A stretch of DNA of 64,000 bases from Anaerolineae bacterium (GTDB lineage Bacteria > Chloroflexota > Anaerolineae > J102): assembly GCA_026991225.1 (NCBI GenBank), contig JALXCB010000044.1, forward strand, positions 6,490 to 70,489, in the 5' to 3' direction. The number at the start of each line of letters is the position of its first letter. Position 1 is the stretch's first letter. Shown here piece after piece: positions 1 through 63,195 of this stretch. The position numbers and the translations under genes were made by a program. The notes beneath the pieces are model-generated. The model ran no database searches. It was not told the origin of the DNA and worked only from the letters and a program-made list of their open reading frames with translations.

Positions 1-1299
1 CTGGATGTCGACGCGGGGCGTCTTTATGTGGCCGATGGCGAGGATGGCCTGCGCATCTACGATGTGAGCCAGCCCGATGCGCCCCAGGAGATAGGCCACT
101 GGCCCGCGGTGGGCGTAAGCCGGGATGTCACGGTCGCGGGCGGATACGCCTACGTGGCCGATTTTCATCAAGGGTTGCGGGTGGTGGATGTGAGCGACGC
201 GGCCGCGGCGCAAGAGGTGGCGGCCCTGACCTGGCCGGGCCGGGTGTATGGCGTAGGCAAAGCCCTGCGGCTGCATCGCAGCGGCCAGCGATTGTATGTG
301 GCGTTGCGAGAGGATGGTCTGGCCGTGGTGGATGTCAGCGATCCCGCTTATCCCCAGCCCCTGGGCCGCTGGGGCCAGGGGGAGGATGTGCGGGATGTGA
401 CCATGACCCCTGCGGGCTTGGCCCTGGCCGACCGGAATCGCGGCGTCCATCTGCTGGATGGGAGCGATCCCGCGGCGCTCAGCCGTCTGGGCGGCTACGA
501 GACCCTGGGGTGGGTGTCGGGTGCGATCCTGACCGATGGCGAGGGCGAAGCCGCACCCTATGTCGCCGCGGGCGGGGATGTGAAATCCCTGACCTGGAGC
601 CCGGAAACAGGGTTCCACCTCGTGGGATGGATGACCACGCCCGGCGTCGCCCATGACGTGGCCCTGCTGCCCGCAGGCCACGCAACGAAACTGGCCGTGG
701 CCGATGGCCCGGTGTGGAACGGCCATGATTGGGAGCCGGGCGGCCTGCGGGTGCTGGACGCGGATTCGGGCCAGGAACTCGCCTTTTATGCCAGCCGGGC
801 TCAGGCCGTGGCCGTGACCGTGGCCGGAGAGCGGGTGTATCTGGCTGATGATGCGGACGGCGTGCATGTCTATGAGCGGGCGGGGGATGGGCTGGTGGAA
901 AGCCAATGGCTGGACTGGCCCGGACACATTCGCGACCTAGCGTTCACCTCTCGTGGGGCATGGGTGGCCCTGCCCGGCCAGGGCGTGGTGGAAACCGCGG
1001 CCGATTTGCCGCCCACGTTCCAGGCCCGCTTCCGTTATGATGGCGTGCTGCGGGTGCAGGGGCTGACCGTCAACGGCAGCCAATTGCTGGTGACGGAAAG
1101 CCTGCCCCACGGGGATCCTTTGCTGTGGGGGCGGCGCTTCCCCAGCCGCATCCACGTGCTGGATATCTCGCGTCCGGGGCAGGTTGTGAGCCAGGGCGAG
1201 GCCGCCACGCCGGGCGAAGCCCTGGACCTGACCGTGAGCCGGGGGTTCATCTTCCTGGCCGCCGGCGACGCGGGCCTGCTGGTCTACGCGCCAGAATGA
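1..1299 (+). CDS. LVIVD-repeat beta-propeller protein (5' partial, runs off window start)
   Basis: Open frame from nt 1; repeated motifs YAYVADFHQGLRVVDVSD / LYVALREDGLAVVDVSDP typical of LVIVD (PF08309) repeats. Confidence 0.7.
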   Translation: MDVDAGRLYVADGEDGLRIYDVSQPDAPQEIGHWPAVGVSRDVTVAGGYAYVADFHQGLRVVDVSDAAAAQEVAALTWPGRVYGVGKALRLHRSGQRLYVALREDGLAVVDVSDPAYPQPLGRWGQGEDVRDVTMTPAGLALADRNRGVHLLDGSDPAALSRLGGYETLGWVSGAILTDGEGEAAPYVAAGGDVKSLTWSPETGFHLVGWMTTPGVAHDVALLPAGHATKLAVADGPVWNGHDWEPGGLRVLDADSGQELAFYASRAQAVAVTVAGERVYLADDADGVHVYERAGDGLVESQWLDWPGHIRDLAFTSRGAWVALPGQGVVETAADLPPTFQARFRYDGVLRVQGLTVNGSQLLVTESLPHGDPLLWGRRFPSRIHVLDISRPGQVVSQGEAATPGEALDLTVSRGFIFLAAGDAGLLVYAPE

Positions 1300-1504
1300 A
1301 GCCGGAGGGCCAGAGGTCAGAGCTACAGAGGTCAGAGCCGCAGAAGCCAGAAGGCCAGAGTGCCAGAAGGCCAGAAAGCCAGAGGGACAGAAGGCCAGAG
1401 GCCCGGCCCCCTGAACACTGAAAACTGAACACTGAACACTCCCCCACCTCCCCTGAAACCCCCATTGACAATTAGCCATTGACCATTCCCCAAAGGAGCT
1501 TCCC
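1300..1504. repeat. intergenic cassette: (GGCCAGARG/GTCAGAGGT)n 9-mer minisatellite + CTGAACACTGA heptamer block + (CATTGACAATTAGC)n promoter-proximal repeat
   Basis: About 11 nine-mer units at 1300-1405; heptamer block 1411-1440; about 1.5 units of the TTGACA-containing 14-mer at 1465-1490. Confidence 0.8.
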
Positions 1505-2635
1505 ATGAACCGCACGCATCTCCGCCTCCTCCCTCCCCTGCTGCTAGCCGCGCTGGTGGCCCTCCTCCTGGCCGGGCTGGCCGCGGCGGGCGGACCGGGC
1601 GTCGGGCCCGCGGCCGCGCCTCCCATTCCCGAGACGAACATCACCTTCGACAGCGACGTCCTCTCCGTGGCCGTCCAGGGCAATTACGCATACGTGGGTT
1701 TGGAATCGGGCGTGGTCATCCTGGACATTACCAACCCCCTTCAGCCGGTGCGACGCGGCTTTTTGGACACCAGCGTGGGCTTCCCACCTTATGCCATTAC
1801 TTCTCCACGATACCTTCAAATTGAAGGGGATCTGCTAGTGATCTCGAATGGCTCCCTTATTGCCACAGTCGATGTGAGCGACTCTGACCATCCCACGCTT
1901 CTTTCGCCTTATCAACAGTATACGACTTATGCCGTTCCTTTTAAACTACTCAATCGCTATCTCTATATCGTTGAGACGGGGAAGTTCCATATCTTCGACC
2001 TACACGATCCCACTCAAATACAGGAAATTTATAAGCTTGATGATGAACGCCTTTTCGCTGATATAGATAGTATGGACGCAGAGACACACCCTTTAGATGG
2101 GCGTACCTATGTGTACATGGTTGGGTACTCACTTTGCTCTCCCGCTGGATGCCCTGGGGGCAATTTTTTGATGATGGATGTTACTAACCTGACCAATCCA
2201 CAGATATTACCTCAAGCTATTTCAATCATGGGGGTCTCACCAGCAATCCGAGTGGAGCAAACGTATGCCTACATCATTGATTCTGATTTGACGATTTATG
2301 ACATTTCGGATCCCTCTTCGTTCCAGCTCGCGGGTAACTATTATGAGGACAACGCAATCTTTGTGGGGCTTGAGGTGTCAAACAACAAATTGGCTACGGG
2401 GGACCAATATGGCTCCGTCCTATATCAATTCGACACCACAGATAAAGTACATCCAAAGAAAATAGCTGTTCATAGGAATGTCAACGGATACCCTGATGCA
2501 TTTTCTGTGAACAGTGACTGCGTCTTCATACCAGAAAAGGAACGAGGTCTACACATCCTTTGTGAAGCTCAGCTCCCTCCACACCCCCCCGTCCAGGTCT
2601 GGCTGCCTATGGTGCAGGCCCGGTTTGAGCGATGA
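1505..2635 (+). CDS. secreted LVIVD-repeat protein, tandem paralog 1
   Basis: Signal peptide MNRTHLRLLPPLLLAALVALLLAGLAAAGG; LVIVD-like repeats (YAYVGLESGVVILDITNP); SD AAAGGAG 8 nt upstream of ATG; conserved N- and C-termini shared with the next two genes. Confidence 0.75.
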   Translation: MNRTHLRLLPPLLLAALVALLLAGLAAAGGPGVGPAAAPPIPETNITFDSDVLSVAVQGNYAYVGLESGVVILDITNPLQPVRRGFLDTSVGFPPYAITSPRYLQIEGDLLVISNGSLIATVDVSDSDHPTLLSPYQQYTTYAVPFKLLNRYLYIVETGKFHIFDLHDPTQIQEIYKLDDERLFADIDSMDAETHPLDGRTYVYMVGYSLCSPAGCPGGNFLMMDVTNLTNPQILPQAISIMGVSPAIRVEQTYAYIIDSDLTIYDISDPSSFQLAGNYYEDNAIFVGLEVSNNKLATGDQYGSVLYQFDTTDKVHPKKIAVHRNVNGYPDAFSVNSDCVFIPEKERGLHILCEAQLPPHPPVQVWLPMVQARFER

Positions 2636-2804
2636 AGGCCGGGGCAGAGGTCAGAGGTCAGAGGCCAGAAGGCCAGAGGGCCAGAGGCCCGGCCCCCTGA
2701 ACACTGAAAACTGAACACTGAACACTCCCCCACCTCCCCTGAAACCCCCATTGACAATTAGCCATTGACAATTAGCCATTGACCATTCCCCAAAGGAGCC
2801 TCCC
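2636..2804. repeat. same intergenic cassette, second copy (about 6 nine-mer units, about 2.5 14-mer units)
   Basis: Read directly; same architecture with different unit counts. Confidence 0.8.
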
Positions 2805-3944
2805 ATGAACCGCACGCATCTCCGTTTCCTCCCTCCCCTGCTTTTGGCCGCACTGGTGGCCCTCCTCCTGGCCGGGCTGGCCGCGGCGGGCGGGCCGGGC
2901 GTCGGGCCCGCGGCCGCGCCCCGCCTCGATCCCCCCGCGCCCGTCAACATCACCTTCGACAGCGACGTTTGGAGCGTTGCAGTACAAGAGAACTATGCTT
3001 TCGTAGGACTGGAAAAGGGGGGCGTCATCATCCTCGATATCACCAATCCTCTCCGTCCCACCGTCGTGAGCACGTTCGATGATCCTGATTCCTATGGCTT
3101 GTATTATGTGGATGACCTCTTCCCCAACGGGGATATCCTGGTCATTCCAGTCGGTTCTGTCTTCTATATCGTCGATATCAGCGATATTACCCACCCGTCC
3201 TGGCTCAGTTATCGCCATCCCGCGGCTTACGAACTGAAGGCCATGGCTCTTTACGACCAGCGGGCTTACGGCCTGGGGCCGGATTCCTTCGAGATTTGGG
3301 ACCTCCAGGACCCCTCCTCGCCTCAGTTGTTGTACGGCATGCGGGATCAGTACCACCGCCTCTTTGCGGATATGCAACAGATCGCGGTCGCTCGCAACCC
3401 CGCAGATGGCCGCATCTACGCCTACATGACCGGCGAGCCCCTCTGTTTCCACGACTGCGTAGGCAATGGCCTGGTTTTCATGGATGTCACCGACCCCTCC
3501 CAGCCCCAAGTCGTCTACACTTCAAGGTGGAATGGAGTCACGCTGGCCGCCCAAGAGGAGTATCTCTATTGGAGCGATTCGGATGCCAGTTTGCAAATCC
3601 TTGGTCTTACCGACCCGCGACAACCAGAACTGTTAAGTCGCATCGATTTAGCCGATATTGGCTTTGCGATGGATAGGAAGGGGAATAGGCTTTTCCTTGC
3701 CCTGGCATACGGAGAAGATGGCCAGATCGATGTTATAGATGTGACTAACAAGACGAAGCCCACTTCCATGACAAGGTATGAAGACGTGAAACACGGGAAA
3801 AGTCTATCTCATTCGGATGAAACAGGCTGCCTGTTCGTGGCGGAGCTTAGCCGCGGCCTGCGCATCCTTTGCGACATCAACGCCAATCCGCACCCCCCCG
3901 CCCTGGTCTGGCTGCCTATGGTGCAGGCCCGGTTTGAGCGATGA
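2805..3944 (+). CDS. secreted LVIVD-repeat protein, tandem paralog 2
   Basis: Near-identical signal peptide and C-terminus VWLPMVQARFER to paralog 1; LVIVD repeats. Confidence 0.75.
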   Translation: MNRTHLRFLPPLLLAALVALLLAGLAAAGGPGVGPAAAPRLDPPAPVNITFDSDVWSVAVQENYAFVGLEKGGVIILDITNPLRPTVVSTFDDPDSYGLYYVDDLFPNGDILVIPVGSVFYIVDISDITHPSWLSYRHPAAYELKAMALYDQRAYGLGPDSFEIWDLQDPSSPQLLYGMRDQYHRLFADMQQIAVARNPADGRIYAYMTGEPLCFHDCVGNGLVFMDVTDPSQPQVVYTSRWNGVTLAAQEEYLYWSDSDASLQILGLTDPRQPELLSRIDLADIGFAMDRKGNRLFLALAYGEDGQIDVIDVTNKTKPTSMTRYEDVKHGKSLSHSDETGCLFVAELSRGLRILCDINANPHPPALVWLPMVQARFER

Positions 3945-4183
3945 AGGCAGGAAGGCCAGAGGTCAGAGGTCAGAACCACAGAGGTCAGAGGCCAGAAGGC
4001 CAAAAGGCCAGAAAGCCAGAGGGCCAGAAGGTCAGAGGCCCGGCCCCCTGAACACTGAAAACTGAACACTGAACACTCCCCCACCTCCCCTGAAACCCCC
4101 ATTGACAATTAGCCATTGACAATTAGCCATTGACAATTAGCCATTGACAATTAGCCATTGACCATTCCCCAAAGGAGCCTCCC
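3945..4183. repeat. same intergenic cassette, third copy (about 11 nine-mer units, about 4.5 14-mer units)
   Basis: CATTGACAATTAGC repeated 4 times plus a partial unit at 4100-4165. Confidence 0.8.
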
Positions 4184-5317
4184 ATGAACCGCTCGCATCT
4201 CCGTTTCCTCCCTCCCCTGCTGCTGGCCGCACTGGTGGCCCTCCTCCTGGCCGGGCTGGCCGCGGCGGGCGGGCCGGGCGTCGGGCCTGCGGCCGTCCCC
4301 CGCCTGGATCCCCCCGCGCCCGTCAACATCACCTTCGACAGCGACGTCCTTTCCGTGGCCGTCCAGGGCGATTACGCGTATGTGGGTTTGGAAAAAGCAG
4401 GCGTAGCCGTTCTTGACATTTCCGATCCCTTGCACCCCATTATCATAAGCACCTTCGATGATCCCGATCCTTCCGGGCTGAATTATGTGGATGAGCTCAT
4501 TCCCAATGGGGATATCCTGATCATTCCCTATGGCTCTGTCTTTTACGTCGTCGATATCAGCGACCCCGCTCATCCCGCCTGGCTCAGTTATAGTCATGAT
4601 GCGGCTTACGAACTGAAGGCCATGGCCCTTTACGACCAGCGGGCTTACGGCCTGGGACCGGACTCCTTCGAGATTTGGGACCTCCAGGACCCCTCCTCGC
4701 CCCAGTTGTTGTACAGCATGCGGGATCAGTACCACCGCCTCTTTTCGGATATGCAGCAGATCGCGGTCGCCCGCAACCCCGCAGATGGCCGCATCTACGC
4801 CTACATGACCGGCGAGCCCCTCTGTTTCCACGACTGCATAGGCAATGGCCTGGTTTTCGTGGATGTGACCGACCCCTCCCAGCCCCAAGTCGTCTACACT
4901 TCAAGGTGGAATGGAGTCACGCTGGCCGCCCAAGAGGAGTATCTCTATTGGAGCGATTCGGATGCCAGTTTGCAAATCCTTGGTCTTACCGACCCGCGAC
5001 AACCAGAACTGTTAAGTCGCATCGATTTAGCCGATATTGGCTTTGCGATGGATAGGAAGGGGAATAGGCTTTTCCTTGCCCTGGCATACGGAGAAGATGG
5101 CCAGATCGATGTTATAGATGTGACTAACAAGACGAAGCCCACTTCCATGACAAGGTATGAAGACGTGAAACACGGGAAAAGTCTATCTCATTCGGATGAA
5201 ACAGGCTGCCTGTTCGTGGCGGAGCTTAGCCGCGGCCTGCGCATCCTTTGCGACATCAACGCCAATCCCCAACCCCCCGCCCAGGTCTGGCTGCCCCTAA
5301 TTGGAATCCAGGGATAG
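4184..5317 (+). CDS. secreted LVIVD-repeat protein, tandem paralog 3
   Basis: Same signal peptide; 3' two-thirds almost identical at DNA level to paralog 2 (3296-3944 vs 4675-5270). Confidence 0.75.
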   Translation: MNRSHLRFLPPLLLAALVALLLAGLAAAGGPGVGPAAVPRLDPPAPVNITFDSDVLSVAVQGDYAYVGLEKAGVAVLDISDPLHPIIISTFDDPDPSGLNYVDELIPNGDILIIPYGSVFYVVDISDPAHPAWLSYSHDAAYELKAMALYDQRAYGLGPDSFEIWDLQDPSSPQLLYSMRDQYHRLFSDMQQIAVARNPADGRIYAYMTGEPLCFHDCIGNGLVFVDVTDPSQPQVVYTSRWNGVTLAAQEEYLYWSDSDASLQILGLTDPRQPELLSRIDLADIGFAMDRKGNRLFLALAYGEDGQIDVIDVTNKTKPTSMTRYEDVKHGKSLSHSDETGCLFVAELSRGLRILCDINANPQPPAQVWLPLIGIQG

Positions 5318-5340
5318 CTCATTCTGCCATCAGGAGGTGC

Positions 5341-8300
5341 ATGGTGAACGTCATCCGACAACGTTTGCTCATGGTCATTATGTTGGTCGCGTTGGCAGGC
5401 ATTTTGCTTCATGTGACCGCCAGGTCCAGCGATCTCGCCGTGGCCAGGAACCAGGCCGCGACGCCGCCGACCGCAACCACGCAGCCCAAGCTGAAGGAAT
5501 TCCTCGATGAAGCGCCTTTTCCTCGAATTTATGCTTTCTATCACAACGCGACATCCTGTGTTTCTGGGGGCCAAAAGGCATACTTTGTTGACCAGATGAA
5601 GTATGTCAATGTGGCGGAACTGCACTATCAGTTGGGCGGCGCCAAAACCGAATCCAGTTGGTGGAGATATCGATATTCGAAAATCGATGTCAATGACAAT
5701 GGCAATTGCGATGACCCGGATGACATGCGTGTCGTCGACTGGTTGGAAAAGCAATGGAGAGATATGCCCGCTAACGCCCACGGCGTCTCAATTCCCCACT
5801 ATCAACTGGCGTTTCTGCCTCTTTGGTATTTCAAAGAGGATGATGCCAGTGGTTTCGACGTTATGCACCGCAGAACCATCGATGACTGTGACGCTGCTTA
5901 CACCTTCATTCCTACACCCACCCCTACCCCCACGAATGCAACGCCTCCAACCCCTGGAGGACCGCCCACGTCCACGCCAGTACCCACCGCAACCCCTGAC
6001 GCTGACTATCTTGAGAAACAGGTCTGGGCCTTGCACGCAGCAACGAATGGCGATGTCATGAGATGGCGGGATGGCGCCAATTTGGCGTTAATCAACGTTT
6101 ACGCAGGCACGCCCATTGCGACTTCGGTGGTCATCCGTTGCGACACCCGCATTACCGAAGGACTGATCCCGGCAGAAACACCGGCGCCGCGCACCTATCA
6201 CGAATGGATGCCACTGTGGGTGGATGCCCGCATCGGCGAAACGCAGTTGGATAACGACCCAAATGAAATCAATCCATGGGATGGCATCCGCATCGACTCT
6301 CAGGCCAATCTCTTCTCCTGGGCCAGGCAAGCGGATTTCGATCTCGATGGACATCTCGATATACGGAAAGAAGAGAGTGGTGGATATGACGACAAGAATG
6401 ATACAGCTTTTGGGCGCCATTATCTCGATGATCTCTATCAGCAGGGAGTGGACAAGCTATTCCAAAACATCTATCAATATCATCCTGGCGAATGGCTCAT
6501 GGGAGGCAATGACGCCTGGCATCCCAATGGGAGCAGCCCCGATGACCCCTCTGGCTTTGGCGAACTGCCTAACATGCATTTCACTATCGCTGAAAACTGG
6601 ACGAAGGATTGGGGGAGTAATGGGCAGTACCATTTTATGCGCTGGCCCAATCCCGATGACGGAGGTTATTCTTCCAACGTAACATTCAGCAAAGCCGTTC
6701 GCATCTGGGACAACTGGGCCCATCACGGAAACGGTCGCAAAGGCTATGTCATTCTATCGAAATGTGACGATGCAGCGAATGATTGCTTGTCCCTTCCCAG
6801 CCAGACCGATGAGACAACCTATGGCTGGGATGATATGCACCGGGAATTCCGCTTCAGCCTGGCTGCGGCGCTGATGCTGGATGCATATCATGCGTTTACG
6901 GGCGCGGGCTATGACATGACGCCCTACTGGTACGACGAGTACGCGGTCATTTGGGATGACAGCAAAGCCCAAGCCGCCCGCACCAACGATGAAAAAGCCA
7001 AAGGCATTGGCTGGCTGGGATATCCGATTTCTGCTCCTTTAGAAGTGGACAGTAGCGGACATGTAACGGGTGTCAACTTGTGTTCGGCAATTGATGGCTG
7101 GCGCAAGGCAACGCCTACTCCCACGCCCGCTCCCGGTGAGACTCCGACACCTAAACCTGCAACAGCCTGGATTCGTTACTTCGAGCATGGCGTGGCCATT
7201 TTGAATCCATCCTCCAATGATATTACAGTGGAGTTGGACCCAAACACGACATATTACCGTATTCAGTGTTCCAGTGGAGGCGGCTCAACGGTTAACGCCG
7301 AGGTTGATTGCCACACCAATAACGGCCAGCCAGTGGACAACCATCAGGTGACGGTTGAGGCGCACGATGGTCTGCTCTTGTATGGCGAAGCGAATCAAAC
7401 GGATAAAATCGCCATTAGCGCATCGCAATATGACATCCAATATTGGGAGGGGCCGGAGTTATTGATCGATGACCGGGGCGAACAAACATGGCAATGGGGC
7501 AATAGAACGGACGAGACCAGTCCCACCATCAGCATCGCGAACGATGAACTGCGCGAGGTGGTTTCCGGCAGGTTGATTTTTCACATCAACGACCCCGATT
7601 TGCAAATGGATATCAAAAATGGAGACATTGTCGACGCCTTTTTGAGCTTACGAACAGATGCCAATCTCAATGACGCATCCATGTGGCTTATCGCTCAAAA
7701 ATCCGCCGAAGACGCTGAGGAGAATTTTCAGAAAATCTTATGGATTGATCCCAATCTGCAGGGACAGGGATGGCATCGCTCACCATCATTGCGAGAGGCT
7801 TTGATCGAGCTTGCCGACCAATCTGGATGGAATGGTCATGTCGAATTTTTCCTTGTTCCCACAGCCTTCAACCACCAATTGGTCTTCGACGCTTACGATA
7901 AAGCAGTGACGAACGCCCCTACACTGGTGATTCTCCGGAAAAAAGTGAGAAGCACCCCATGCGTTACGGAGAATACAACGGGGCCTTATCAGGCCACCTA
8001 CCAACACGGCGTCAACGGCTACTATGGCGGCGAGGACACTTACATCGTCACCACCGACTGGGAGCCCCCCACCACCCACGACACCTTCCCCGCGCTCTAC
8101 ATCCGCGTCAACTACCCCAACGAGCAAATTCACTCCTCCCTCATCCGTTTCAACAACGCCACGCTCCCCGCCGGTGCGGAGATCGTCAAGGCCCAGCTCG
8201 ACATGTTCTACGCTGGGCAATCGGTCAATGGCGGCGACCTCACCGCCTATGTGGCCTACACCAAAGAGCCCTGGAAAGCCTCCGAGACCACCTGGGTCAA

Positions 8301-8574
8301 CTTCCAGACTTCCCTCTACTGGAATGCTACAGGCGTGAAGGGCGTGGACGACCGGGATCCCCACGTCTATGTCCTGCCCGTCAACTACCAGCAAGTGGGC
8401 AACTGGCTCAGCTTCAACGTCACCCAGGTGGTGAAGGACACGCCGGGGGATGATTACGATTTCTTCTTCTACGGCTCCTTCGACGGCGTCAACAAGAACA
8501 TCTACTTCCATTCCAACGACTACTGGAAGGCGAGCGAGCGGCCCAAGCTCACCATCTGGTATCGGATGCCGTAA
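5341..8574 (+). CDS. large N-terminally anchored extracellular protein of unknown function with Pro/Thr-rich linkers (possibly carbohydrate-active)
   Basis: ATG at 5341 preceded by AGGAGG; N-terminal TM helix; PTPTPTPTNATPPTPGG and TPTPTPAPGETPTPKP linkers; no family recognised by eye. ORF-track start at 5248 overlaps the upstream gene and is less likely. Confidence 0.6.
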   Translation: MVNVIRQRLLMVIMLVALAGILLHVTARSSDLAVARNQAATPPTATTQPKLKEFLDEAPFPRIYAFYHNATSCVSGGQKAYFVDQMKYVNVAELHYQLGGAKTESSWWRYRYSKIDVNDNGNCDDPDDMRVVDWLEKQWRDMPANAHGVSIPHYQLAFLPLWYFKEDDASGFDVMHRRTIDDCDAAYTFIPTPTPTPTNATPPTPGGPPTSTPVPTATPDADYLEKQVWALHAATNGDVMRWRDGANLALINVYAGTPIATSVVIRCDTRITEGLIPAETPAPRTYHEWMPLWVDARIGETQLDNDPNEINPWDGIRIDSQANLFSWARQADFDLDGHLDIRKEESGGYDDKNDTAFGRHYLDDLYQQGVDKLFQNIYQYHPGEWLMGGNDAWHPNGSSPDDPSGFGELPNMHFTIAENWTKDWGSNGQYHFMRWPNPDDGGYSSNVTFSKAVRIWDNWAHHGNGRKGYVILSKCDDAANDCLSLPSQTDETTYGWDDMHREFRFSLAAALMLDAYHAFTGAGYDMTPYWYDEYAVIWDDSKAQAARTNDEKAKGIGWLGYPISAPLEVDSSGHVTGVNLCSAIDGWRKATPTPTPAPGETPTPKPATAWIRYFEHGVAILNPSSNDITVELDPNTTYYRIQCSSGGGSTVNAEVDCHTNNGQPVDNHQVTVEAHDGLLLYGEANQTDKIAISASQYDIQYWEGPELLIDDRGEQTWQWGNRTDETSPTISIANDELREVVSGRLIFHINDPDLQMDIKNGDIVDAFLSLRTDANLNDASMWLIAQKSAEDAEENFQKILWIDPNLQGQGWHRSPSLREALIELADQSGWNGHVEFFLVPTAFNHQLVFDAYDKAVTNAPTLVILRKKVRSTPCVTENTTGPYQATYQHGVNGYYGGEDTYIVTTDWEPPTTHDTFPALYIRVNYPNEQIHSSLIRFNNATLPAGAEIVKAQLDMFYAGQSVNGGDLTAYVAYTKEPWKASETTWVNFQTSLYWNATGVKGVDDRDPHVYVLPVNYQQVGNWLSFNVTQVVKDTPGDDYDFFFYGSFDGVNKNIYFHSNDYWKASERPKLTIWYRMP

Positions 8575-8595
8575 AAACGCCTGTTGCGAGGTAAC

Positions 8596-8735
8596 TACCT
8601 TGACAATGTCACATTACGTCATTCCGAGGGAGCGAAGCGACCGAGGAATCTAGCCCGCAGGGCGCTTCGCTAGATTCCTCCGCCCTTCGGTCGTCGGAAT
8701 GACGTGCTTGGAGGTAATTTGACATTGTCGAACTA
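8596..8735. repeat. large imperfect palindrome / stem-loop downstream of the 1108-aa gene
   Basis: Arms GGTAACTACCTTGACAATGTCACATTACGTCATTCCG and its imperfect reverse complement flank an internally palindromic loop (GAGGAATCTAGC...GCTAGATTCCTC). Confidence 0.6.
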
Positions 8736-8744
8736 CTCAGGTGT

Positions 8745-8949
8745 CGCCACCACTTTTTGCCGCGAAGACACGAAGGAAACGAGGGCGCAAAGTCATCCAA
8801 AAAAGGTAACTGCTAAGGTAGTTGGCCCCAATCGCCCCTTTTTTGCCACGAAGACACGAAGGAAACGAAGGCGCGAAGTCATTCAAAAAAGATTTTATCC
8901 GTGTTTCCTCGTATCCGTGTCGAGTGAACAGGGCTACGTTAGCAGTTAT
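8745..8949. mobile_element. MITE-A variant copy (8806-8949) preceded by a partial tandem half-copy (8745-8805)
   Basis: GTAACTGCTAAGGT ... ACGTTAGCAGTTAT; internal sequence matches the outer element at 24178; lies between convergent gene ends. Confidence 0.7.
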
Positions 8950-8953
8950 AGTT

Positions 8954-9496
8954 TCATGTTGCTGACTGCGCGCCATAATGAAACGCGCCGGGAAAATCTT
9001 CGGCAACTTGTTTCTGCTTGCCGATCCACGTTTCGATATCGAGACGAATCACGGCTGTGATCTTCAGGTCTTCGGGTTGGGCGGGAAGGTAATCCGCGTC
9101 TGGTTGCAAATGGGGCGCGTACTTGTCCATGATCATCTGCAAGGCCCGTGCCGCTTCCTCCCCCTCCACCAGGCTCGCCCGCCCGAACAGCATGACGCTG
9201 GCGTATTCCACGCTGAAATTCAGCGCCCGTTTCGCGGGCAGCAACCGGCCCATGCGGAAGACCGTGGCCGACGCCTTGGGATGGTTCCGGGCCAGCGCCG
9301 CGGTGCGCCCCTGGTTGGTGGCGTGGATGTACACCACGCGCCGGGCTTCGTCAAAGGCATACAGCGTGGGGAAGAGAAAGGGCTGATCGTCCTGGCAAAA
9401 GCCCAGCGTGATCACGGCTTCCTCACGCAAAAAATCGGTGATCCAGGCGTCATCGGTGATGGCCCGGTCCTTGCGTCGAATGTTGGTCAGACTCAT
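8954..9496 (-). CDS. pyridoxamine 5'-phosphate oxidase-family FMN-binding protein
   Basis: ~180 aa [33 protein letters not shown]...; PNPOx-like split-barrel pattern; start ATG overlaps pdxT stop (ATGA). Confidence 0.7.
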
Positions 9497-11849: not shown

Positions 11850-12119
11850 AAGTGGATTTTTCCTCCGAATTTTTTATTTAATAGGAATAGCATCTGGGTT
11901 TTGAAGCTGTCCCGCCCACAGGACGAGACCAAAAGCGCTTCTCAACTGACCACTGATTACTGATCACTGGTCACTCCAATTGTACCCCTTTTCCCCGCGT
12001 TTCGTCCAGACGCCAGCAGGAAAAAACGCTCTCATGGATTGTTTTCTTCGGAAATTTCGGGCCTTCCTGTGCTCATGATACAATAATAGGTCTGGAAATC
12101 GGTCGATGCAAGGATTTGC

Positions 12120-17408: not shown

Positions 17409-17496
17409 TCACCTCCACTTCAATTATGCCCGAACCAGGCGGTTGATGCAATCCCCACACTGAACACTCCCTCACTGATCACTGATTACTGAATCC

Positions 17497-24181: not shown

Positions 24182-24471
24182 CCGCTAACGTAGCCCTGTT
24201 CACTCGACACGGATACGAGGAAACACGGATAAAATCTTTTTTTGTAACTGCTAACGTACCCCGGTTAACAAACCACAAAGGGCACAAAGGCGCCAAGAAC
24301 ACGAAGAAAAAAATGTATAAATTCCCCTTTGTGCCTTTGTGTCTTCGTGTTCTTAGTGGTTTTCGGGTGATGACCTTAGTAGTTACCTTTTTAAATGACT
24401 TCGCGCCTTCGTTTCCTTCGTGCCTTCGTGGCAAAAGAGGGGCTACTGGGGCCAACTACCTTAGCAGTTAC
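24178..24471. mobile_element. composite MITE-A: outer variant copy (TSD GATTCCGA) carrying a nested MITE-A (24244-24386)
   Basis: Outer TIRs GTAACCGCTAACGT / ACCTTAGCAGTTAC with TSD 24170-24177 = 24472-24479; inner element has its own TIRs and a degenerate CTTTTT flanking repeat; the outer body matches the copy at 8806-8949. Confidence 0.75.
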
Positions 24472-24714
24472 GATTCCGAATCCAATTTCCACGGCCGGTA
24501 GCGCGCAAAGCCGGCGATACGAGCAACGGCTCGCCGATGCGAACGAAAACGCCTCGCGGCCAAGTCGGCGCGGGAAGCCAAGCACGTAATGCGTGATGCG
24601 TAACGATCTCACGTTTCACGTTTTCACGCATCACGTCCGTAGCAGACTCGCCCAACCTCGTCCTGGCGTTCCTCAATCCTAATCCTGATCCTACTCCTAT
24701 TTATCAAAGCAGCC

Positions 24715-27681: not shown

Positions 27682-27836
27682 GTAACTGCTAACGTACTTG
27701 ACTTTAGACCGCCAAAAGCCACGAAGGCTCGAAGTTTTTCGAAGCCACGAAGGAAAAAATAAAGAAAAATACGTCGTGCCTTCGCTTTTCTTCGTGTCTT
27801 CGTGGCAAAAAGTGGTCGCGATACCTTAGTAGTTAC
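27682..27836. mobile_element. MITE-A copy (155 bp) with 8-bp TSD GTTTTCGG, inserted in a family-E repeat
   Basis: TIRs GTAACTGCTAACGT / ACCTTAGTAGTTAC; direct repeat 27674-27681 = 27837-27844; the uninterrupted family-E copy at 60293-60475 (reverse complement) has a single GTTTTCGG at this point. Confidence 0.85.
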
Positions 27837-30731: not shown

Positions 30732-31136
30732 ATGGATAGAAAAGTACGCGTCTTAGTCGCCAAACCGGGCCTGGACGGCCACGATCGCGGGGCCAAGGTC
30801 ATCGCCCGGGCCCTGCGCGACGCGGGCTACGAAGTCATCTACACCGGCATCCGCCAGACGCCCGAGATGATCGCGGAGGCCGCGCTGCAAGAGGACGTGG
30901 ACGTGGTGGGCCTCTCCATCCTTTCGGGCGCGCACATGGCCCTGGTGCCTCGCGTTATCGAGGAGCTGCGGCGGTTGGGCATGGAGGATGTGGTCGTGCT
31001 GGTGGGCGGCATCATCCCCGATGAGGATGTGCCCGCGCTGCTGGATATGGGCGTGGCGGGCGTCTTCGGCCCCGGCACCCTCACCTCCGAGATCGTGGAA
31101 ACCATCGAGAACGCCCTCGGCCGCGAATTGGCGTAA
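30732..31136 (+). CDS. mcmB: methylmalonyl-CoA mutase B12-binding (small) subunit
   Basis: [33 protein letters not shown]; DxHxxG cobalamin-binding motif. Confidence 0.85.
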
Positions 31137-31152
31137 GGATGTTGGATGGCAG

Positions 31153-31190
31153 TCACCACTGATTACTGAACACTGAACACTGATTACTTT
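31153..31190 (+). promoter_or_regulatory. CACTGA(W)TA heptamer array immediately 5' of the meaB start codon
   Basis: CACCACTGATTACTGAACACTGAACACTGATTACTTTCA-ATG; similar arrays at 1411-1440, 2695-2726, 4048-4077, 11942-11977, 17455-17493, 48757-48800. Confidence 0.5.
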
Positions 31191-31192
31191 CA

Positions 31193-32215
31193 ATGACCCC
31201 ATCCACCGTCCCCGAACTCGTCGACGCCCTGCTCGCGGGCAACCGTCGCGCCCTGGCCCGCGTCATCTCCCATATCGAAAACAACACCGACCTGGCCCGA
31301 CCTCTCCTGGCCGCGCTCTATCCCAGGGCGGGGCGGGCGCACATCATCGGCGTCACCGGCTCTCCCGGCACGGGCAAATCCACCCTGGTCAACGTCCTGG
31401 CCGGGGTCTATCGCCAGCGCGACCTCACCGTGGGCGTCATCGCCATCGACCCCACCAGCCCCTTCAGCGGCGGCGCCCTGCTGGGCGACCGGGTGCGGAT
31501 GCGCGATCTGGCGGGGGATCCAGGCGTATTCATTCGATCCATGGCCACGCGCGGCAGTCTGGGCGGGCTGGCCCAGGCCACCGCGGACGTGATCATGGTG
31601 CTGGACGCGGCCGGCTTCGACCGCATCATCATCGAGACGGTGGGCGTGGGGCAGAGCGAAGTGGAGATCGCCAGCGCCGCCTACACCACCGTCGTGGTGG
31701 AAGCCCCCGGCCTGGGGGATGAAGTCCAGGCCATCAAGGCAGGCGTGCTGGAGATCGCGGATATCTTCGCCGTGAACAAGGCGGACCGGGAGGGCGTGGA
31801 CCGCACGGTCATGGCCCTGAAAATGATGCTCAGCCTGGGCGCGCCCGAGAAGTTCCAGGTGATGCATCATGGCCGGATGCTGCCCGTGGAGATTCCCCAG
31901 GCCCGGACGGAGTCCCATGCCTGGACGCCTCCCATCATCAAGACCATCGCCGTCTCGGGCGAAGGCGCGGTCGAACTGGCCGACGCCATCGAGAATCACC
32001 GCCTCTATCTGGAGCAGAGCGGCGGTCGGGTGTTGCGAGATCGACTGCGGGCCGCCACCGAGCTGCGCATGATTTTGCGCGATTACCTGCTGGAAAAACT
32101 CCTGGCCCGCACGCCCGAAGACGTGCTGAAACAGACCATCGACGCCGTCGCCCGCCGTGAGATCGATCCCTACACCGCGGTGCAACAGTTGGTCGATCAA
32201 GTTCGTAACTGCTAA
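31193..32215 (+). CDS. meaB: methylmalonyl-CoA mutase-associated GTPase MeaB/ArgK
   Basis: GVTGSPGTGKSTLVNVL P-loop; last three codons and stop lie inside a MITE. Confidence 0.9.
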   Translation: MTPSTVPELVDALLAGNRRALARVISHIENNTDLARPLLAALYPRAGRAHIIGVTGSPGTGKSTLVNVLAGVYRQRDLTVGVIAIDPTSPFSGGALLGDRVRMRDLAGDPGVFIRSMATRGSLGGLAQATADVIMVLDAAGFDRIIIETVGVGQSEVEIASAAYTTVVVEAPGLGDEVQAIKAGVLEIADIFAVNKADREGVDRTVMALKMMLSLGAPEKFQVMHHGRMLPVEIPQARTESHAWTPPIIKTIAVSGEGAVELADAIENHRLYLEQSGGRVLRDRLRAATELRMILRDYLLEKLLARTPEDVLKQTIDAVARREIDPYTAVQQLVDQVRNC

Positions 32216-32358
32216 GGTCGCGCCGCCGCTTTTTGCCACGAAGACACGAAGAAAACAAAGGCACGACGTATTTTTCTTTATTTTTTCCTTCGTGGCTTCG
32301 AAAAACTTCGAGCCTTCGTGGCTTCTTGTGGCCTTAAGTCGAGTACGTTAGCAGTTAC
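32205..32358. mobile_element. MITE-A copy with TSD TCAAGTTC, inserted in the last codons of meaB
   Basis: TIRs GTAACTGCTAAGGT / ACGTTAGCAGTTAC; TSD 32197-32204 = 32359-32366; meaB stop TAA lies in the TIR. Confidence 0.85.
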
Positions 32359-36210: not shown

Positions 36211-36505
36211 GGTAGTATTCGGGGAGAAGGATGGGAATGGTTGCCCGCTTCGCTGGTGCGAGAAGCCGAGGACGTGACGAGTTATGCGTGATGCGGAAGT
36301 GCCTCACGGATTACGGGTGGCGGCAGTCGGTAACCCAGTAGACCAGGAAACCAGAAAACCGGGAAACCGGGCCACCTTCCTGGGCTACTGGGCTACTGGT
36401 TTCCTGGTTTACTACCTTTATTTTCAAATCAGAAAATTGCGCTCAGGCTTTGAAATCATTATACTGCTACCCGATAGAAATCTTCCAATCCCCCTCGGAG
36501 CGACC

Positions 36506-38846: not shown

Positions 38847-39231
38847 CGGTTTTGAAAAATAACTTCGCGTTCGTTTACACAAGCAACTCAAAGCCAACGT
38901 TGGGCGAGTCTGCTACGGGCGTCAAACGTCATACGTAAAACGTCAGGACATGACGCATGACGTTTGACGCTGACCGACTGACAAAACGTTGCCTATGCGT
39001 TTGCCGTGTCCCTTTGCCCCCTCCCCGGCCCTTATATGATAAAGCGGGGTGAGGATATATGATAACCGTGTCATATAACTCATCTCCCCCGATACTCGCT
39101 CCGTTCGTGTTCGAGAGAAGGGGACGCCCGAAGCCAGTCAGTTTTCACGAAATAAGCGCTTCTTACCGGGCGAAAACATGTCCCCTGCCCTTCGCTCCTT
39201 TTGACCTCGCTACGTTGGTAGCTACGCCTGC

Positions 39232-42059: not shown

Positions 42060-42316
42060 AGCGTCCTCCTGTTTCGGAAGTGGCGTTGCGTTGGTTTACA
42101 AAAGCAACTCGAAGCCCGCGTTGCGCGAGTCTGCAGCGGACGTGATGCGTGAAAACGTGAAACGTGAGAGCATTACGCATCACGCATTACGTGATTGACT
42201 TCCCGCGCCAACCTGGCCGCGAGGCGTTTTCTGCATCCCAGGATACCCCCCAACCATTCACAAAATGTGATGCGAATGTAAAAAATGTGTCATCCCCCGC
42301 CGCCCAACGGACAAAG

Positions 42317-42390
42317 TGGGGCCCCTCGGGCTTGAACCGAGAACCGGCGGTTTATGAGACCGCTGCTCTAACCACTTGAGCTAGGGCCCC
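42317..42390 (-). tRNA. tRNA-Met (anticodon CAT)
   Basis: Reverse complement folds as cloverleaf: acceptor GGGGCCC/GGGCCCC, anticodon loop CTCATAA, T-loop TTCAAGC; CCA not encoded. Confidence 0.85.
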
Positions 42391-42576
42391 CTATGTGGTT
42401 GCACGCCCCATCGAAAAAACGCTTTGTTGGCGCGGGAAGCCGCGTCGTGAAACGTGATGCGTGATGCGTAACGTTATCACGTTTCACGCATTACGTTTCA
42501 CGTGAGTTGCCGCCTCGGCCAACTTTGGCTTGACGAACCTTTCGCCATCTGCGCCAACGCGCTATCTTCAAAGAAG

Positions 42577-42647
42577 AGCGGGCAACGGGATTCGAACCCG
42601 TGACGAGAGCTTGGAAGGCTCTAGTGTTACCACTACACCATGCCCGC
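42577..42647 (-). tRNA. tRNA-Gly (anticodon TCC)
   Basis: Acceptor GCGGGCA/TGCCCGC, anticodon stem AGAGC/GCTCT with loop CTTCCAA, T-arm GGGTTCGAATCCC. Confidence 0.85.
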
Positions 42648-42792
42648 GCGGAAAACAGTCATCCGTGATGGACATAGAAATTCTACACAGGATCGCGGGA
42701 AATGACAAGTCGAGAAGGAGCACAGATCACAATCTCCCTTCTCTGTGTTCTCTGTGCGATCTCAGTGAACTCGGTGTTCCTCTTTCAAAAAA

Positions 42793-42866
42793 GTCGGGGA
42801 GGCCGGATTCGAACCGACGACCTCTTGGACCCAAACCAAGCGCGCTACCGAACTGCGCTACTCCCC
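42793..42866 (-). tRNA. tRNA-Pro (anticodon TGG)
   Basis: Acceptor CGGGGAG/CTCCCCG, anticodon stem CTTGG/CCAAG loop TTTGGGT, T-arm GTCGGTTCGAATCCGGC. Confidence 0.85.
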
Positions 42867-42872
42867 GATGGG

Positions 42873-43001
42873 AGTAACTGCTAACGTACTCGACTTCAGG
42901 CCACAAGAAGCCACGAAGGGGAAAATAAAGAAAAATACGTCGTGCCTTCGTTTTCTTCGTGTCTTCGTGGCAAAAAGCGGCGGTGCGACCTTAGCAGTTA
43001 C
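42873..43001. mobile_element. MITE-A short variant (129 bp) with TSD CGATGGGA, 6 nt from the tRNA-Pro 5' end
   Basis: TIRs GTAACTGCTAACGT / ACCTTAGCAGTTAC; TSD 42865-42872 = 43002-43009. Confidence 0.85.
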
Positions 43002-43656: not shown

Positions 43657-43855
43657 TCTCTGGAAGTTGTCATTTGGAATGAAAAGCGCGCGCCAGCAAG
43701 ATGGGCGCGGGCAGCCAAAGCCGTGAAACGTCATGCGTGATGCGTGACCATCTCACGCGTCACGATTTCACGCATCACGCCCGTTGCCGCCTCGCCCAAC
43801 GTCAGCCTGGCGGGCCTTTCGCAGACGGCGCCAACGCTCTGGACGAAACAGCACC

Positions 43856-44992: not shown

Positions 44993-45224
44993 AGATGGAG
45001 TGATCGCTGGTCGTTGAAGGATCGCCAGGATTACGTTGGCCGAGGCGGCAACGGGCGTGATGCGTGAAAACGTGATACGTGAGGTCTTCACGCATCACGC
45101 ATGACGTTTCACGTCCTTGGGTTCCCGCGCCACACGGGCCGCGAGGCATTTTCATCGGTATGGGCGAGCTTTCGCCTGTGTCGACCGATTTGTAAGCGGA
45201 TGCGTCCCAAATTATTGGCAGACA

Positions 45225-48614: not shown

Positions 48615-48804
48615 TGGCAATTTTTTCTCCGAATTCGGGATTGCGTCTTTTTGACATTATAAGCGATTCTGAAAAGAACGGAGAATGCGCCATCTTATAA
48701 AAACAACTGGACAATTGAATCGATTGCGGGTATGATCCCAAGGCTGGATCATTCACCTGAACACTGATTACTGAACACTGCACACTGATTTCTCAACGCC
48801 AACC

Positions 48805-49577: not shown

Positions 49578-49680
49578 TTGGGAAACCGGGAAACCGGTAG
49601 ACCAGTAGACCGGGTTGAGCGAGTTGGCCCGGTTTACTGGTTTACTGGTTTCCCTGGTTTACGAGTTTACCGGGATACTG
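49578..49680. repeat. family-D palindromic repeat (CCGGTAGACCAGTAGACCGG ... CCGGTTTACTGGTTTACTGG)
   Basis: Copies at 36325-36420, 52165-52262, 58930-59005, partial 60278-60302. Confidence 0.7.
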
Positions 49681-49717
49681 GCCGCGAGGCGTTTTCGTTC
49701 TCGCGTCGCCCGCTTTA

Positions 49718-52105: not shown

Positions 52106-52382
52106 GAATGGATATTATCGAACCAGAGGGGGCGATCACGCAAATCTGCGTTGAAAATAGAGTTTGGTAAACCGGGAAACCGGTAGACCAGTAGACCGGG
52201 AGGGTGAGCGAATCGGCCCGGTTTCCCTGGTTTCCTGGTTTACCGGTTTACGGGGCTACGTAGCCCGCCATTTTCATCCGTATCGGCAAGCGATCGGTCG
52301 TGTCGCCTGCGTTGAAAACAGGATTAGAGAACGCGGATGACGCAGATTGAAACGGATGAGCGCTGATAATAAAGAAAAAATC

Positions 52383-57013: not shown

Positions 57014-57282
57014 GTTGGCCTCCTGCTTTGAAAATAGGATTCGGATTGAGGATCGTCAGGACAACGTTGAGCGAGCCTGCAACGGACGTGATGCGTGAAA
57101 ACGTGAAACGTGAAGGCCTTACGCATCACGCATTACGTTTCACGGGCCGGCTTCCTGCGCGGCCCTGGCCGCGATGCGTTTTCGTTCGTATCGGCGAGCT
57201 TTGGATCAGGGTGCTCGCTTCAAAGAAAAAGGGGATGGCAGCAAACGGCGACCATCCCCTGAGTCAGCGATAGAACGGCGGA

Positions 57283-59544: not shown

Positions 59545-59697
59545 GTAACTACTAAGGTCGCGACACCACTTTTTGCCACGAAGACACGAAGAGAACGAAG
59601 GAGCGAAGCCTTCTTCTTTATTTTTCCTTCGTGTCTTCGTAAAACTTCGAGCCTTCGTGGCTTCTTACGACCTAAAGTCGAGTACGTTGGCAGTTAC
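59545..59697. mobile_element. MITE-A copy 30 bp upstream of the SH3-protein gene
   Basis: TIRs GTAACTACTAAGGT / ACGTTGGCAGTTAC; imperfect flanking repeat GAACTTAT / GAACTATC. Confidence 0.75.
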
Positions 59698-62796: not shown

Positions 62797-62960
62797 GTAA
62801 CTGCTAAGGTATCGCCACCACTTTTTGCCACGAAGACACGAAGAAAAGCCAAGGCACGACGTATTTTTCTTGATTTTTCCTTCGTGTCTTCGAAAAACTT
62901 CGAGCCTTCGTGGCTTTTGGCGGCCTAAAGTCAAGTACGTTAGCAGTTACAAACTCGGGC
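62797..62960. mobile_element. MITE-A copy with TSD AAACTCGG, inserted in a family-F repeat between HMGCS and thiolase
   Basis: TSD 62789-62796 = 62961-62968; the uninterrupted family-F copy at 45225-45360 has a single AAACTCGG. Confidence 0.85.
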
Positions 62961-63195
62961 TCTTTAGGCGCTTCGCGCCTGTGGTCGACCTTCGTCGACC
63001 TGATTTCCATCATGAACATGGACGGCGGAGGCCGTCCACTGGCCGCAGGCCTGGAATGGTACGACTTCAGTCGACAGCATAGGCGACCACAGCAGACCAA
63101 AACGCGTTTTGTCAGCCAATCAGCGTCATGCGTCAAACGTCAAAGAACAGCAACGGAGCGCCTCTGATGACGTTTGACGTTTTACGTTTGACGCC

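Follow-up and report, generated by a model that had tools for sequence, protein, structure and literature searches.

At the start of a 64-kb stretch of DNA from an uncultured hydrothermal-vent Anaerolineae bacterium (the window; its coordinates count from position 1 of this stretch) lies a cluster of genes for LVIVD-repeat proteins. It consists of the 3′ part of a larger LVIVD gene (gene 0), three complete small paralogs, each preceded by a spacer of short tandem repeats, and a large gene with a CBM96 domain. We read this cluster as one operon, in which the spacers are intercistronic leaders built from arrays that occur across the lineage, the gene ends are homogenised by gene conversion and the arrays are not promoters, and we give this reading slightly better than even odds (roughly 55 %). 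For comparison we used metagenome assemblies and contigs, which are numbered L001-L125.

The one-operon reading rests on the spacers having neither a -35/-10 pair nor a terminator and from all genes lying on the + strand. Such an operon would most likely comprise the large LVIVD gene, one to three small secreted LVIVD paralogs and the gene for the large CBM96-domain protein, with transcription most likely starting from a canonical TTGACA/TATAAT promoter that precedes gene 0 and lies beyond the window. Unequal recombination would add and remove small paralogs, and gene conversion would keep leader, signal peptide and 3′ end near-identical around propeller cores that would be old, deeply divergent and swappable cassettes. 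The spacers would represent intercistronic leader DNA from the arrays of 7-8 nucleotides (nt) that fill intergenic regions genome-wide. Slippage would lengthen and shorten these arrays, in the case of the octamers quickly enough for near-identical strains to differ, and if the arrays are active they would probably act as a G-poor unstructured RNA leader or as protein-binding sites affecting translation.

Genes and spacers of the LVIVD cluster

Four open reading frames (ORFs) on the + strand lie within positions 1-5317, the first of them (28..1299) open at the window start (Table 1). All four match Pfam LVIVD (PF08309) above the gathering score, with E values from 1e-18 to 1e-27, which confirms the three complete LVIVD paralogs behind a partial fourth gene described in a first-pass annotation of this DNA. 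In related assemblies the complete gene 0 encodes 616 amino acids (aa), and the full-length protein P0043 is 99 % identical. The same annotation had called the signal peptide, the Shine-Dalgarno sequence (SD) and the C-terminus of the three paralogs identical. This holds for the SD, AAGGAG in each case, but the signal-peptide regions share 88-96 % identity across the first 45 aa, and the C-terminus VWLPMVQARFER is common to paralogs 1 and 2 only, paralog 3 ending in VWLPLIGIQG.

The spacers ahead of paralogs 1, 2 and 3 measure 205, 169 and 239 nt. The alignment resolves the same three repeat modules in each of them, so the proposed three-part build stands, and the motifs lie far above chance (7 occurrences of the 14-mer vs 0.24 expected, 13 of CTGAACACTGAA vs 0.12 and 15 of the octamer dimer vs 0.12). 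The modules follow in a fixed order, with a purine-rich imperfect array directly after the stop codon, the block CTGAACACTGAAAACTGAACACTGAACACT, a C-rich stretch, units of CATTGACAATTAGC, AAGGAG and ATG. The first array had been described as a 9-mer minisatellite of about 11, 6 and 11 units; the array is real, but its period is 7-8 nt (GGCCAGAR / GGTCAGA, with Tandem Repeats Finder (TRF) matches of 73-88 %) and the CAGAR cores number 12, 6 and 11 in spacers 1-3. The heptamer block ends 64-106 nt upstream of the ATG.

Regarding the 14-mer CATTGACAATTAGC, estimated earlier at about 1.5, 2.5 and 4.5 copies, we could confirm tandem repeats carrying TTGACA and refine the count to 1, 2 and 4 perfect copies in spacers 1-3, plus an invariant partial copy CCATTGACCATT. 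Two related heptamers, CCATTGA and CAATTAG, make up the 14-mer; elsewhere they are found in mixed heptamer arrays. In RNA form the spacer repeats read (CUGAACA)4 and (CCAUUGACAAUUAG)n. The 60 nt preceding each ATG are identical save for one C/T, so added 14-mers put TTGACA copies farther upstream and leave the proximal TTGACA unmoved. The distance from the proximal unit to the ATG is fixed across the spacers, and the idea that the number of 14-mers shifts TTGACA relative to the start had to be abandoned.

Promoter signals and the distribution of the arrays

A consensus scan of positions 1200-5500 found no sigma-70-type -35/-10 pair in the spacers, with a consensus that may not be the Anaerolineae's own. 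None of the TTGACA hexamers in the spacers has a -10 partner 16-18 nt away. The 14-mer does carry GACAAT, a match to the -10 consensus at four of six positions, and the 14-nt period sets the TTGACA-to-GACAAT spacings at 10, 24 or 38 nt, never 16-18. A scan of the same interval for intrinsic terminators found none in the spacers, all four terminator-like matches lying inside coding sequence. Counted from the heptamer block to the ATG, the leader contains 12 % G. Folding of spacers 2 and 3 gave z scores of -0.58 and -0.56 against shuffled sequences, with no structure signal and no long hairpin, and an Rfam search of positions 1-9000 at E<=1 returned just two chance PVX_3 matches, both in coding sequence.

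The first-pass annotation had proposed that each spacer is a promoter with the repeated TTGACA as its -35 box, and that slippage of the 14-mers switches or grades each paralog as in a contingency locus. The 14-mers are perfect and tandem (TRF 96-98 %), which makes slippage plausible, their copy number differs among the paralogs and, at an orthologous spacer, between the window (1) and L042 (2), TTGACA is a perfect -35 hexamer and the products have a signal-peptide-like N-terminus. We nevertheless consider such spacer promoters distinctly unlikely, because the repeats occur genome-wide, also in front of uncharacterised non-LVIVD ORFs, TTGACA is dispensable in orthologues, where heptamers free of it replace the module, promoter geometry is absent, the position of the proximal unit is invariant and the number of 14-mers is constant in three strain-level assemblies per spacer while the number of octamers varies. 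Contingency loci of the porA/opc/hif type have their repeat tract in the core promoter, between the -35 and -10 boxes or overlapping them, and no such placement was found here.

Metagenome arrays that end in GACAAT-N3-6-ATG also prompted us to ask whether TTGACA could serve as a -35 box in a promoter of leaderless mRNAs. We rejected this for the LVIVD spacers, because a 28-nt SD-containing stretch follows the last GACAAT and a correctly spaced -35 box is missing. The arrays concerned stand in L009, L024, L029 and L039, where CCATTGA/CAATTAG arrays end 3-6 nt before an ATG without an SD. In all four contigs GACAAT occupies the place expected for the -10 box of a leaderless mRNA, and in L039 TTGACC lies exactly 17 nt upstream. 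Heptamer arrays might thus supply promoter elements in some genes, judging from their position and sequence.

The repeats are not confined to the cluster. With a threshold of at least 2.5 copies, TRF identified 34 separate arrays of period 7 or 8 in the window, vs about one in first-order Markov simulations, and 28 of them lie outside the LVIVD locus. Several CTGAnnn arrays stand in forward orientation before unrelated genes (Table 1), among them the array between the genes for a B12-binding domain and MeaB, a functionally linked pair. The DUF1648, MeaB and short-chain dehydrogenase (SDR) genes behind such arrays lack an SD. Upstream of the SDR array and its ATG at 48805, a promoter-like TGGACA-17-TATGAT (10 of 12 matches) occupies 48708-48736, so that the array would fall in the 5′ untranslated region (5′UTR). 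This site, together with the perfect boxes upstream of gene 0 in four assemblies, indicates that the lineage uses consensus promoters.

A metagenome scan with CATTGACAATTAGCCATTGAC recovered 35 contigs, of which only L034 (the same contig as L121) represents the LVIVD locus. In the remaining contigs the 14-mer resolves to mixed heptamer arrays (CCATTGA, CAATTAG, CCATTAG, CCATTAA and others), which form inverted hairpin pairs or stand directly ahead of uncharacterised ORFs that are not LVIVD paralogs. In L029 and L039 an octamer array precedes the CCATTGA/CAATTAG array, echoing the composite build of the LVIVD spacers. The spacer architecture is an intergenic style of the lineage as a whole and not peculiar to this locus.

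The closest species-representative genomes are the Anaerolineae metagenome-assembled genomes HyVt-591, T2_metabat1_scaf2bin.155 and T11_maxbin2_scaf2bin.315, and one related sample is labelled hydrothermal vent metagenome. The source samples are JGI 3300028400, ENA ERZ23491050, ERZ23491340, ERZ27262687 and ERZ23495249, and SRR4453772 of PRJNA290104. Among relatives, the order of a large LVIVD gene, one or more small paralogs and the CBM96 gene is conserved. The CBM96 gene is the conserved final gene of the cluster and adjoins it in L001, L002, L004 and L005. The number of small paralogs is one in L042 and apparently one in L001, at least two in L002, L041 and L124, and three in the window. The proximal module differs more widely. 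L003, L005 and L042 carry two 14-mers and L001 degenerate copies. In L004, L041, L046 and L124 the 14-mers give way to 3-4 ACTGATR heptamers (TAACTGA read in a different register) without any TTGACA, and L002 has neither kind of unit. Judged from these orthologous spacers, the TTGACA module appears dispensable and interchangeable.

Several points weigh against the one-operon reading. A -10-only promoter may exist at GACAAT in the LVIVD spacers, with a start about 28 nt ahead of the ATG. TTGAC is kept in three of four degenerate units of the distant relative L001, and this retention could reflect selection on the motif. The 4.9-copy 14-mer tract has expanded recently, as its perfect identity shows, and this would fit selection for copy number. 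Finally, both co-transcription and the lack of internal promoters are deduced from scans for consensus sites, and internal promoters of a non-consensus form may exist.

Variation among strains, mosaic genes and the promoter of gene 0

Strain-level relatives were identified through a protein identical to paralog 1 (L120, L121 and L122) or through gene 0 (L123 and L125); they are a small sample of short-read assemblies, in which tandem arrays may be collapsed. L121 is identical to window positions 1057-3615 except for a 16-nt deletion and three substitutions within the octamer array of spacer 1. The sole difference of L122 over 1.25 kb is one extra octamer in spacer 2, and L120, with 19 mismatches in 3.5 kb, has a spacer 1 array that is 55 nt shorter. 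The octamers of spacer 1 number 12 in the window, 12 in L125, 10 in L121, 5 in L120 and at least 15 in L123, and those of spacer 2 number 6, 6, 6 and 7 (the last in L122). The number of 14-mers is the same in the three same-strain assemblies available per spacer and differs only in L042, a sister genome. It is the octamer array beside the upstream stop codon that is hypervariable, not the TTGACA array. In this small sample, the comparison among strains suggested in the first-pass annotation shows repeat-number variation for the octamers and not, among near-identical assemblies, for the 14-mers.

It is very improbable that the paralog array or the repeat counts are artefacts of mis-assembled metagenome repeats. 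Related contigs often break within these spacers (L001, L002, L003, L005, L122 and L123), paralogs 2 and 3 share long stretches of 100 % identity, and differences in octamer count could come from repeat collapse. However, the order of gene 0, paralog 1 and paralog 2 recurs with both spacers in the independent assemblies L120 and L121, and the indels are whole units (8 and 16 nt, and 55 nt from mixed 7- and 8-nt units).

The paralogs themselves are mosaics. Among twelve paralogs compared, the first 45 aa are 86-98 % identical in most pairs (65-88 % in pairs with L001, L002 or L004, which are more distant), and the propeller cores fall into at least three types with a mutual identity of 30-35 %. 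Directly behind gene 0 the window has a core of type A, L042 and L046 one of type B, and the flanks of this slot (gene 0, the spacer and the signal-peptide region) share 94.5 % (L042) and 88 % (L046) nucleotide identity with the window. An alignment of paralogs 2 and 3 shows 100 % identity in columns 601-660 and 721-1080 and 60-83 % in columns 121-420. The synonymous divergence (dS) is 1.44 in aa 41-145, with a ratio of nonsynonymous to synonymous divergence (dN/dS) of 0.12, and falls to 0.049 in aa 146-365. This contrast in dS has the appearance of mosaic gene conversion under purifying selection; gene conversion would probably be what homogenises the ends.

Diversifying selection on the variable N-terminal blades was considered and rejected, as dN/dS is 0.12 and dS is saturated. 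Together, the low dN/dS and the saturated dS indicate that the segment is old and constrained and is shuffled by recombination. The GC content is 44-55 % in the cores, 44-56 % in the cores and the CBM96 gene together (1650-9000), about 61 % in the window and 65-68 % in gene 0 and the signal-peptide segments, and the variable cores have a compositional history other than that of the conserved ends.

Upstream of gene 0, outside the window, L042, L120, L124 and L125 have perfect TTGACA and TATAAT boxes with a poly-G tract between them (Table 1). In three of the four promoters the -10 box has the extended form TGATATAAT. The leader of gene 0 in L125 had no Rfam match, and folding of the gene 0 leader gave a z score of +0.26, with no structure signal. 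Judged by its sequence, this could be a phase-variable promoter of the operon, a candidate known only from related assemblies. It is possible, if tentative, that the whole operon is phase-variable through the poly-G tract in the canonical promoter of gene 0 and that the arrays between the paralogs are bystanders. The tract ranges from G7 to G14, with spacers of 15, 21, 23 and 25 nt between the perfect boxes, and the G run is all that distinguishes L125 from L120 across 290 nt of promoter and leader. Homopolymers of 8 or more are absent from the 64-kb window, and the poly-G is the only one in each poly-G locus.

Homopolymer tracts placed between the -10 and -35 boxes are the mechanism given for phase variation of Neisseria porA, fetA and opc (PMC2791445). 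The two cases are alike in a variable homopolymer tract between the two hexamers, here poly-G. They differ in that the spacers here, of 15 and 21-25 nt, lie outside the optimum, the organism is free-living and uncultured, and the poly-G is outside the window and is not the repeat on which the earlier annotation had focused. None of the four observed spacers falls in the 16-18 nt range, the extended -10 box may dispense with a -35 box, homopolymer lengths from short reads are error-prone by a base or two, and the comparison covers four related assemblies. A combination of several layers, in which the poly-G switches the operon, array-length leaders tune the paralogs and cores are swapped via the homogenised leader/signal-peptide segment and 3′ ends as recombination handles, is unlikely in our view.

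Known repeat systems and further features

The closest parallel is offered by the TAACTGA direct repeats of marine Beggiatoaceae, some Cyanobacteria and Bacteroidetes, which stand shortly before start codons and for which a translational role was proposed (MacGregor 2015, PMC4679880). Chloroflexi or Chloroflexota are not mentioned in that paper. Both systems consist of short direct intergenic heptamer arrays (2-6 units in the TAACTGA system), placed forward near the start codons of unrelated genes, with many sets per genome. Our window has such direct forward intergenic heptamers both in the LVIVD spacers (CTGAACA x4.3 in each) and in sets before unrelated genes (starting at 11946, 17475, 31159 and 48757), and the CTGAACA, CTGATTA and CTGATCA arrays belong to the same motif class in another register. 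The window units CTGAACA, CTGAAAA, CTGATTA and CTGATCA share just the CTGA core with TAACTGA, and exact TAACTGA units are present in the orthologous LVIVD spacers of L004, L041, L046 and L124. Most Beggiatoaceae sets end a few nt from the start codon without an SD, whereas the block in the LVIVD spacers ends far from it, next to a strong SD; arrays ending close to the start were found at 17475 (1 nt) and 31159 (6 nt). The host here also belongs to another phylum, Chloroflexota, and several unit families (octamers, CCATTGA/CAATTAG) stand in tandem.

Heptamers in a transcribed tract are known from Haemophilus influenzae hmw1A/hmw2A, where (ATCTTTC)n lies upstream of a secreted surface protein gene and paralogous loci have different repeat numbers, as in the LVIVD cluster. 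The hmw tracts have at least 11 perfect units, a mapped 5′UTR and a long hairpin cleaved by RNase III (PMC12721329). In contrast, the LVIVD tracts are short, with no predicted structure (z about -0.6) and none of the stable long hairpin of hmw1A. The TAAA tract of Neisseria nadA (PMC2791445) is comparable in that a repeat upstream of the core promoter sets the distance to upstream elements, as extra 14-mers would do for the heptamer block, but nadA has mapped NadR operators and a mapped promoter, and none comparable was identified at the LVIVD locus.

By analogy with these systems, the arrays could be transcribed cis-elements bound by an RNA-binding protein or the ribosome, the number of heptamers setting a heritable, mutable level of translation or stability for each paralog, as a tuning knob would. 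Forward heptamer arrays do lie between a promoter-like site and a start codon or between cistrons, and the paralog leaders differ chiefly in array length. TAACTGA repeats, proposed as translational regulators, are arranged alike (PMC4679880), and the transcribed tract of hmw1A controls expression post-transcriptionally (PMC12721329). Yet the leader folds no more stably than shuffled sequence, the arrays have only 4 to 9 heptamers and the most strain-variable array, the octamer, is farthest from the start codon. We regard such tuning as doubtful, and within the operon reading any action of the arrays at the RNA level is likewise inferred.

The arrays also resemble other genome-wide repeats. Mazel and colleagues are said to have described, in 1990, heptamer arrays of the short tandemly repeated repetitive (STRR) type in cyanobacteria. 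The resemblance lies in genome-wide intergenic tandem heptamers of several sequence families; the phylum and the units are different, and here many arrays form inverted pairs or stand directly at gene starts.

In our literature searches we found no description of heptamer arrays in Chloroflexi/Anaerolineae, and searches for LVIVD together with phase variation returned nothing relevant besides a paper on LVIVD surface proteins (Adindla et al. 2004). If the arrays are inert, the locus would be an ordinary expanded gene family in a repeat-rich genome. Heptamer and octamer arrays of the TAACTGA/STRR kind abound in this vent Anaerolineae lineage, which adds a phylum in which to seek the factor that creates or reads them. 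The octamer arrays could be used as strain markers and may serve as recombination handles. The poly-G tract in the operon promoter represents a testable phase-variation candidate in environmental Chloroflexota, where, to our knowledge, contingency loci have hardly been examined.

Table 1. Features of the LVIVD cluster, other repeat arrays of the window and poly-G tracts of related assemblies
Feature	Position	Strand or orientation	Basis or remark
Gene 0, 3′ part of larger LVIVD-repeat protein, first gene of the cluster	1..1299	+	Pfam LVIVD E 1.1e-27
Spacer 1, imperfect 7-8 nt array (GGCCAGAR/GGTCAGA), 12 cores	1300..1410	+	TRF; polymorphic among strains
Spacer 1, CTGAACA-type heptamer block, 4.3 units	1411..1440	+	same in all three spacers
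Spacer 1, CCATTGA/CAATTAG array, 1 full 14-mer + fixed partial	1462..1487	+	
Shine-Dalgarno AAGGAG, 6 nt from ATG	1493..1498; equivalents 2793-2798, 4172-4177	+	sequence, alignment
Paralog 1, 376 aa, signal-peptide-like N-terminus and LVIVD propeller, type A core	1505..2635	+	GC 44-47 %
Spacer 2, 7-8 nt array, 6 cores	2636..2696	+	7 cores in L122
Spacer 2, CTGAACA heptamer block	2697..2726	+	
Spacer 2, 14-mer array, 2 full + partial	2748..2787	+	TRF 2.9 copies, 96 %; identical in L120, L121
Paralog 2, 379 aa, type C core	2805..3944	+	ORF, Pfam, alignment
Spacer 3, 7-8 nt array, 11 cores	3945..4047	+	
Spacer 3, CTGAACA heptamer block	4048..4077	+	
Spacer 3, 14-mer array, 4 full + partial	4099..4166	+	TRF 4.9 copies, 98 %
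Paralog 3, 377 aa, type C core, a mosaic when compared with paralog 2	4184..5317	+	alignment
Large CBM96 gene, 1077 aa, 23 nt past paralog 3	5341..8574	+	C-terminal CBM96, Pfam E 3.9e-6
CTGAnnn array, 145 nt ahead of class A penicillin-binding protein gene (12120)	11946-11975	forward	
CTGAnnn array before DUF1648/bPH gene (17497)	17475-17495	forward	1 nt from ATG
CTGAnnn array in 56-nt gap between B12-binding-domain gene (30732-31136) and MeaB GTPase gene (31193)	31159-31186	forward	6 nt from start
CTGAnnn array before SDR gene (48805)	48757-48797	forward	
Palindromic GTAACTGCTAACGTA element	8806-8949, 24244-24471, 27682-27836, 32205-32358, 42874-43001, ~59545-59697, 62797-62950		
Inverted array pairs	24585-24636, 36342-36399, 38920-38974, 42140-42191, 42453-42503, 43729-43779, 45056-45106, 49580-49681, 52169-52251, 57086-57145, 63168-63199		
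Poly-G promoter upstream of gene 0, L042	314-340		G7, spacer 15 nt
Poly-G promoter upstream of gene 0, L120	3787-3819		G10, spacer 21 nt
Poly-G promoter upstream of gene 0, L124	5786-5820		G13, spacer 23 nt
Poly-G promoter upstream of gene 0, L125	3768-3804		G14, spacer 25 nt

Regarding the paralog proteins, the AlphaFold2 model of paralog 3, based on a 15-sequence alignment, reached a mean predicted local distance difference test (pLDDT) score of 81.6. It displays a helix at residues 5-25, a low-confidence linker and an all-beta propeller at about 50-360. This model supports the small paralogs as tandem copies predicted to have an N-terminal hydrophobic helix followed by a beta-propeller. A Foldseek search of the model against the Protein Data Bank (PDB) gave generic propellers only (WD40, BamB and designed ones; template modelling (TM) scores 0.55-0.63) and hinted at no function. 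A profile search of solved-structure sequences gave no match, and exact-protein look-ups of paralog 2, P0001 (paralog 3) and P0163 (gene 0 of the source contig) gave no record. The C-termini of the paralogs (2590-2635, 3899-3944 and 5272-5317) carry the motif P-x-P-P-x-x-V-W-L-P after a conserved Cys. Its W, L and P are invariant in 15 homologues and gene 0 is without it; the motif might be a sorting or anchoring signal.

Two of the related contigs have particular surroundings. In L003 (76-2289 and 2337-2683), from another metagenome, a GAF-PAS histidine kinase gene is followed by a type C paralog that has the same leader module and a much longer octamer array ahead of it (26 CAGAR-type cores within the 420 nt before the ATG). 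The paralog of L004 directly follows an IS3-family transposase.

Other repeats of the window are arranged as inverted copies. Heptamer and octamer arrays occur as inverted pairs in many intergenic regions (e.g. ACGTGAA.../...TCACGCA or GGGAAACC.../...GGTTTACT) and could form hairpins of tandem repeats; several of these pairs flank three tRNA genes at 42316-42867. We also noticed a dispersed palindromic element of about 130-230 nt with terminal inverted repeats GTAACTGCTAACGTA (15 matches vs 0 expected) and CACGAAG(A/G) octamer arrays on both arms, which by its sequence looks like an intergenic repeat of the miniature inverted-repeat transposable element (MITE) or repetitive extragenic palindromic (REP) type. 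Directly behind the CBM96 gene, at 8590-8720, lies a long imperfect palindrome of the CGTCATTCCGAGG...CCTCGGAATGACG type, which might serve as terminator region for the cluster or belong to a further family of repeats.

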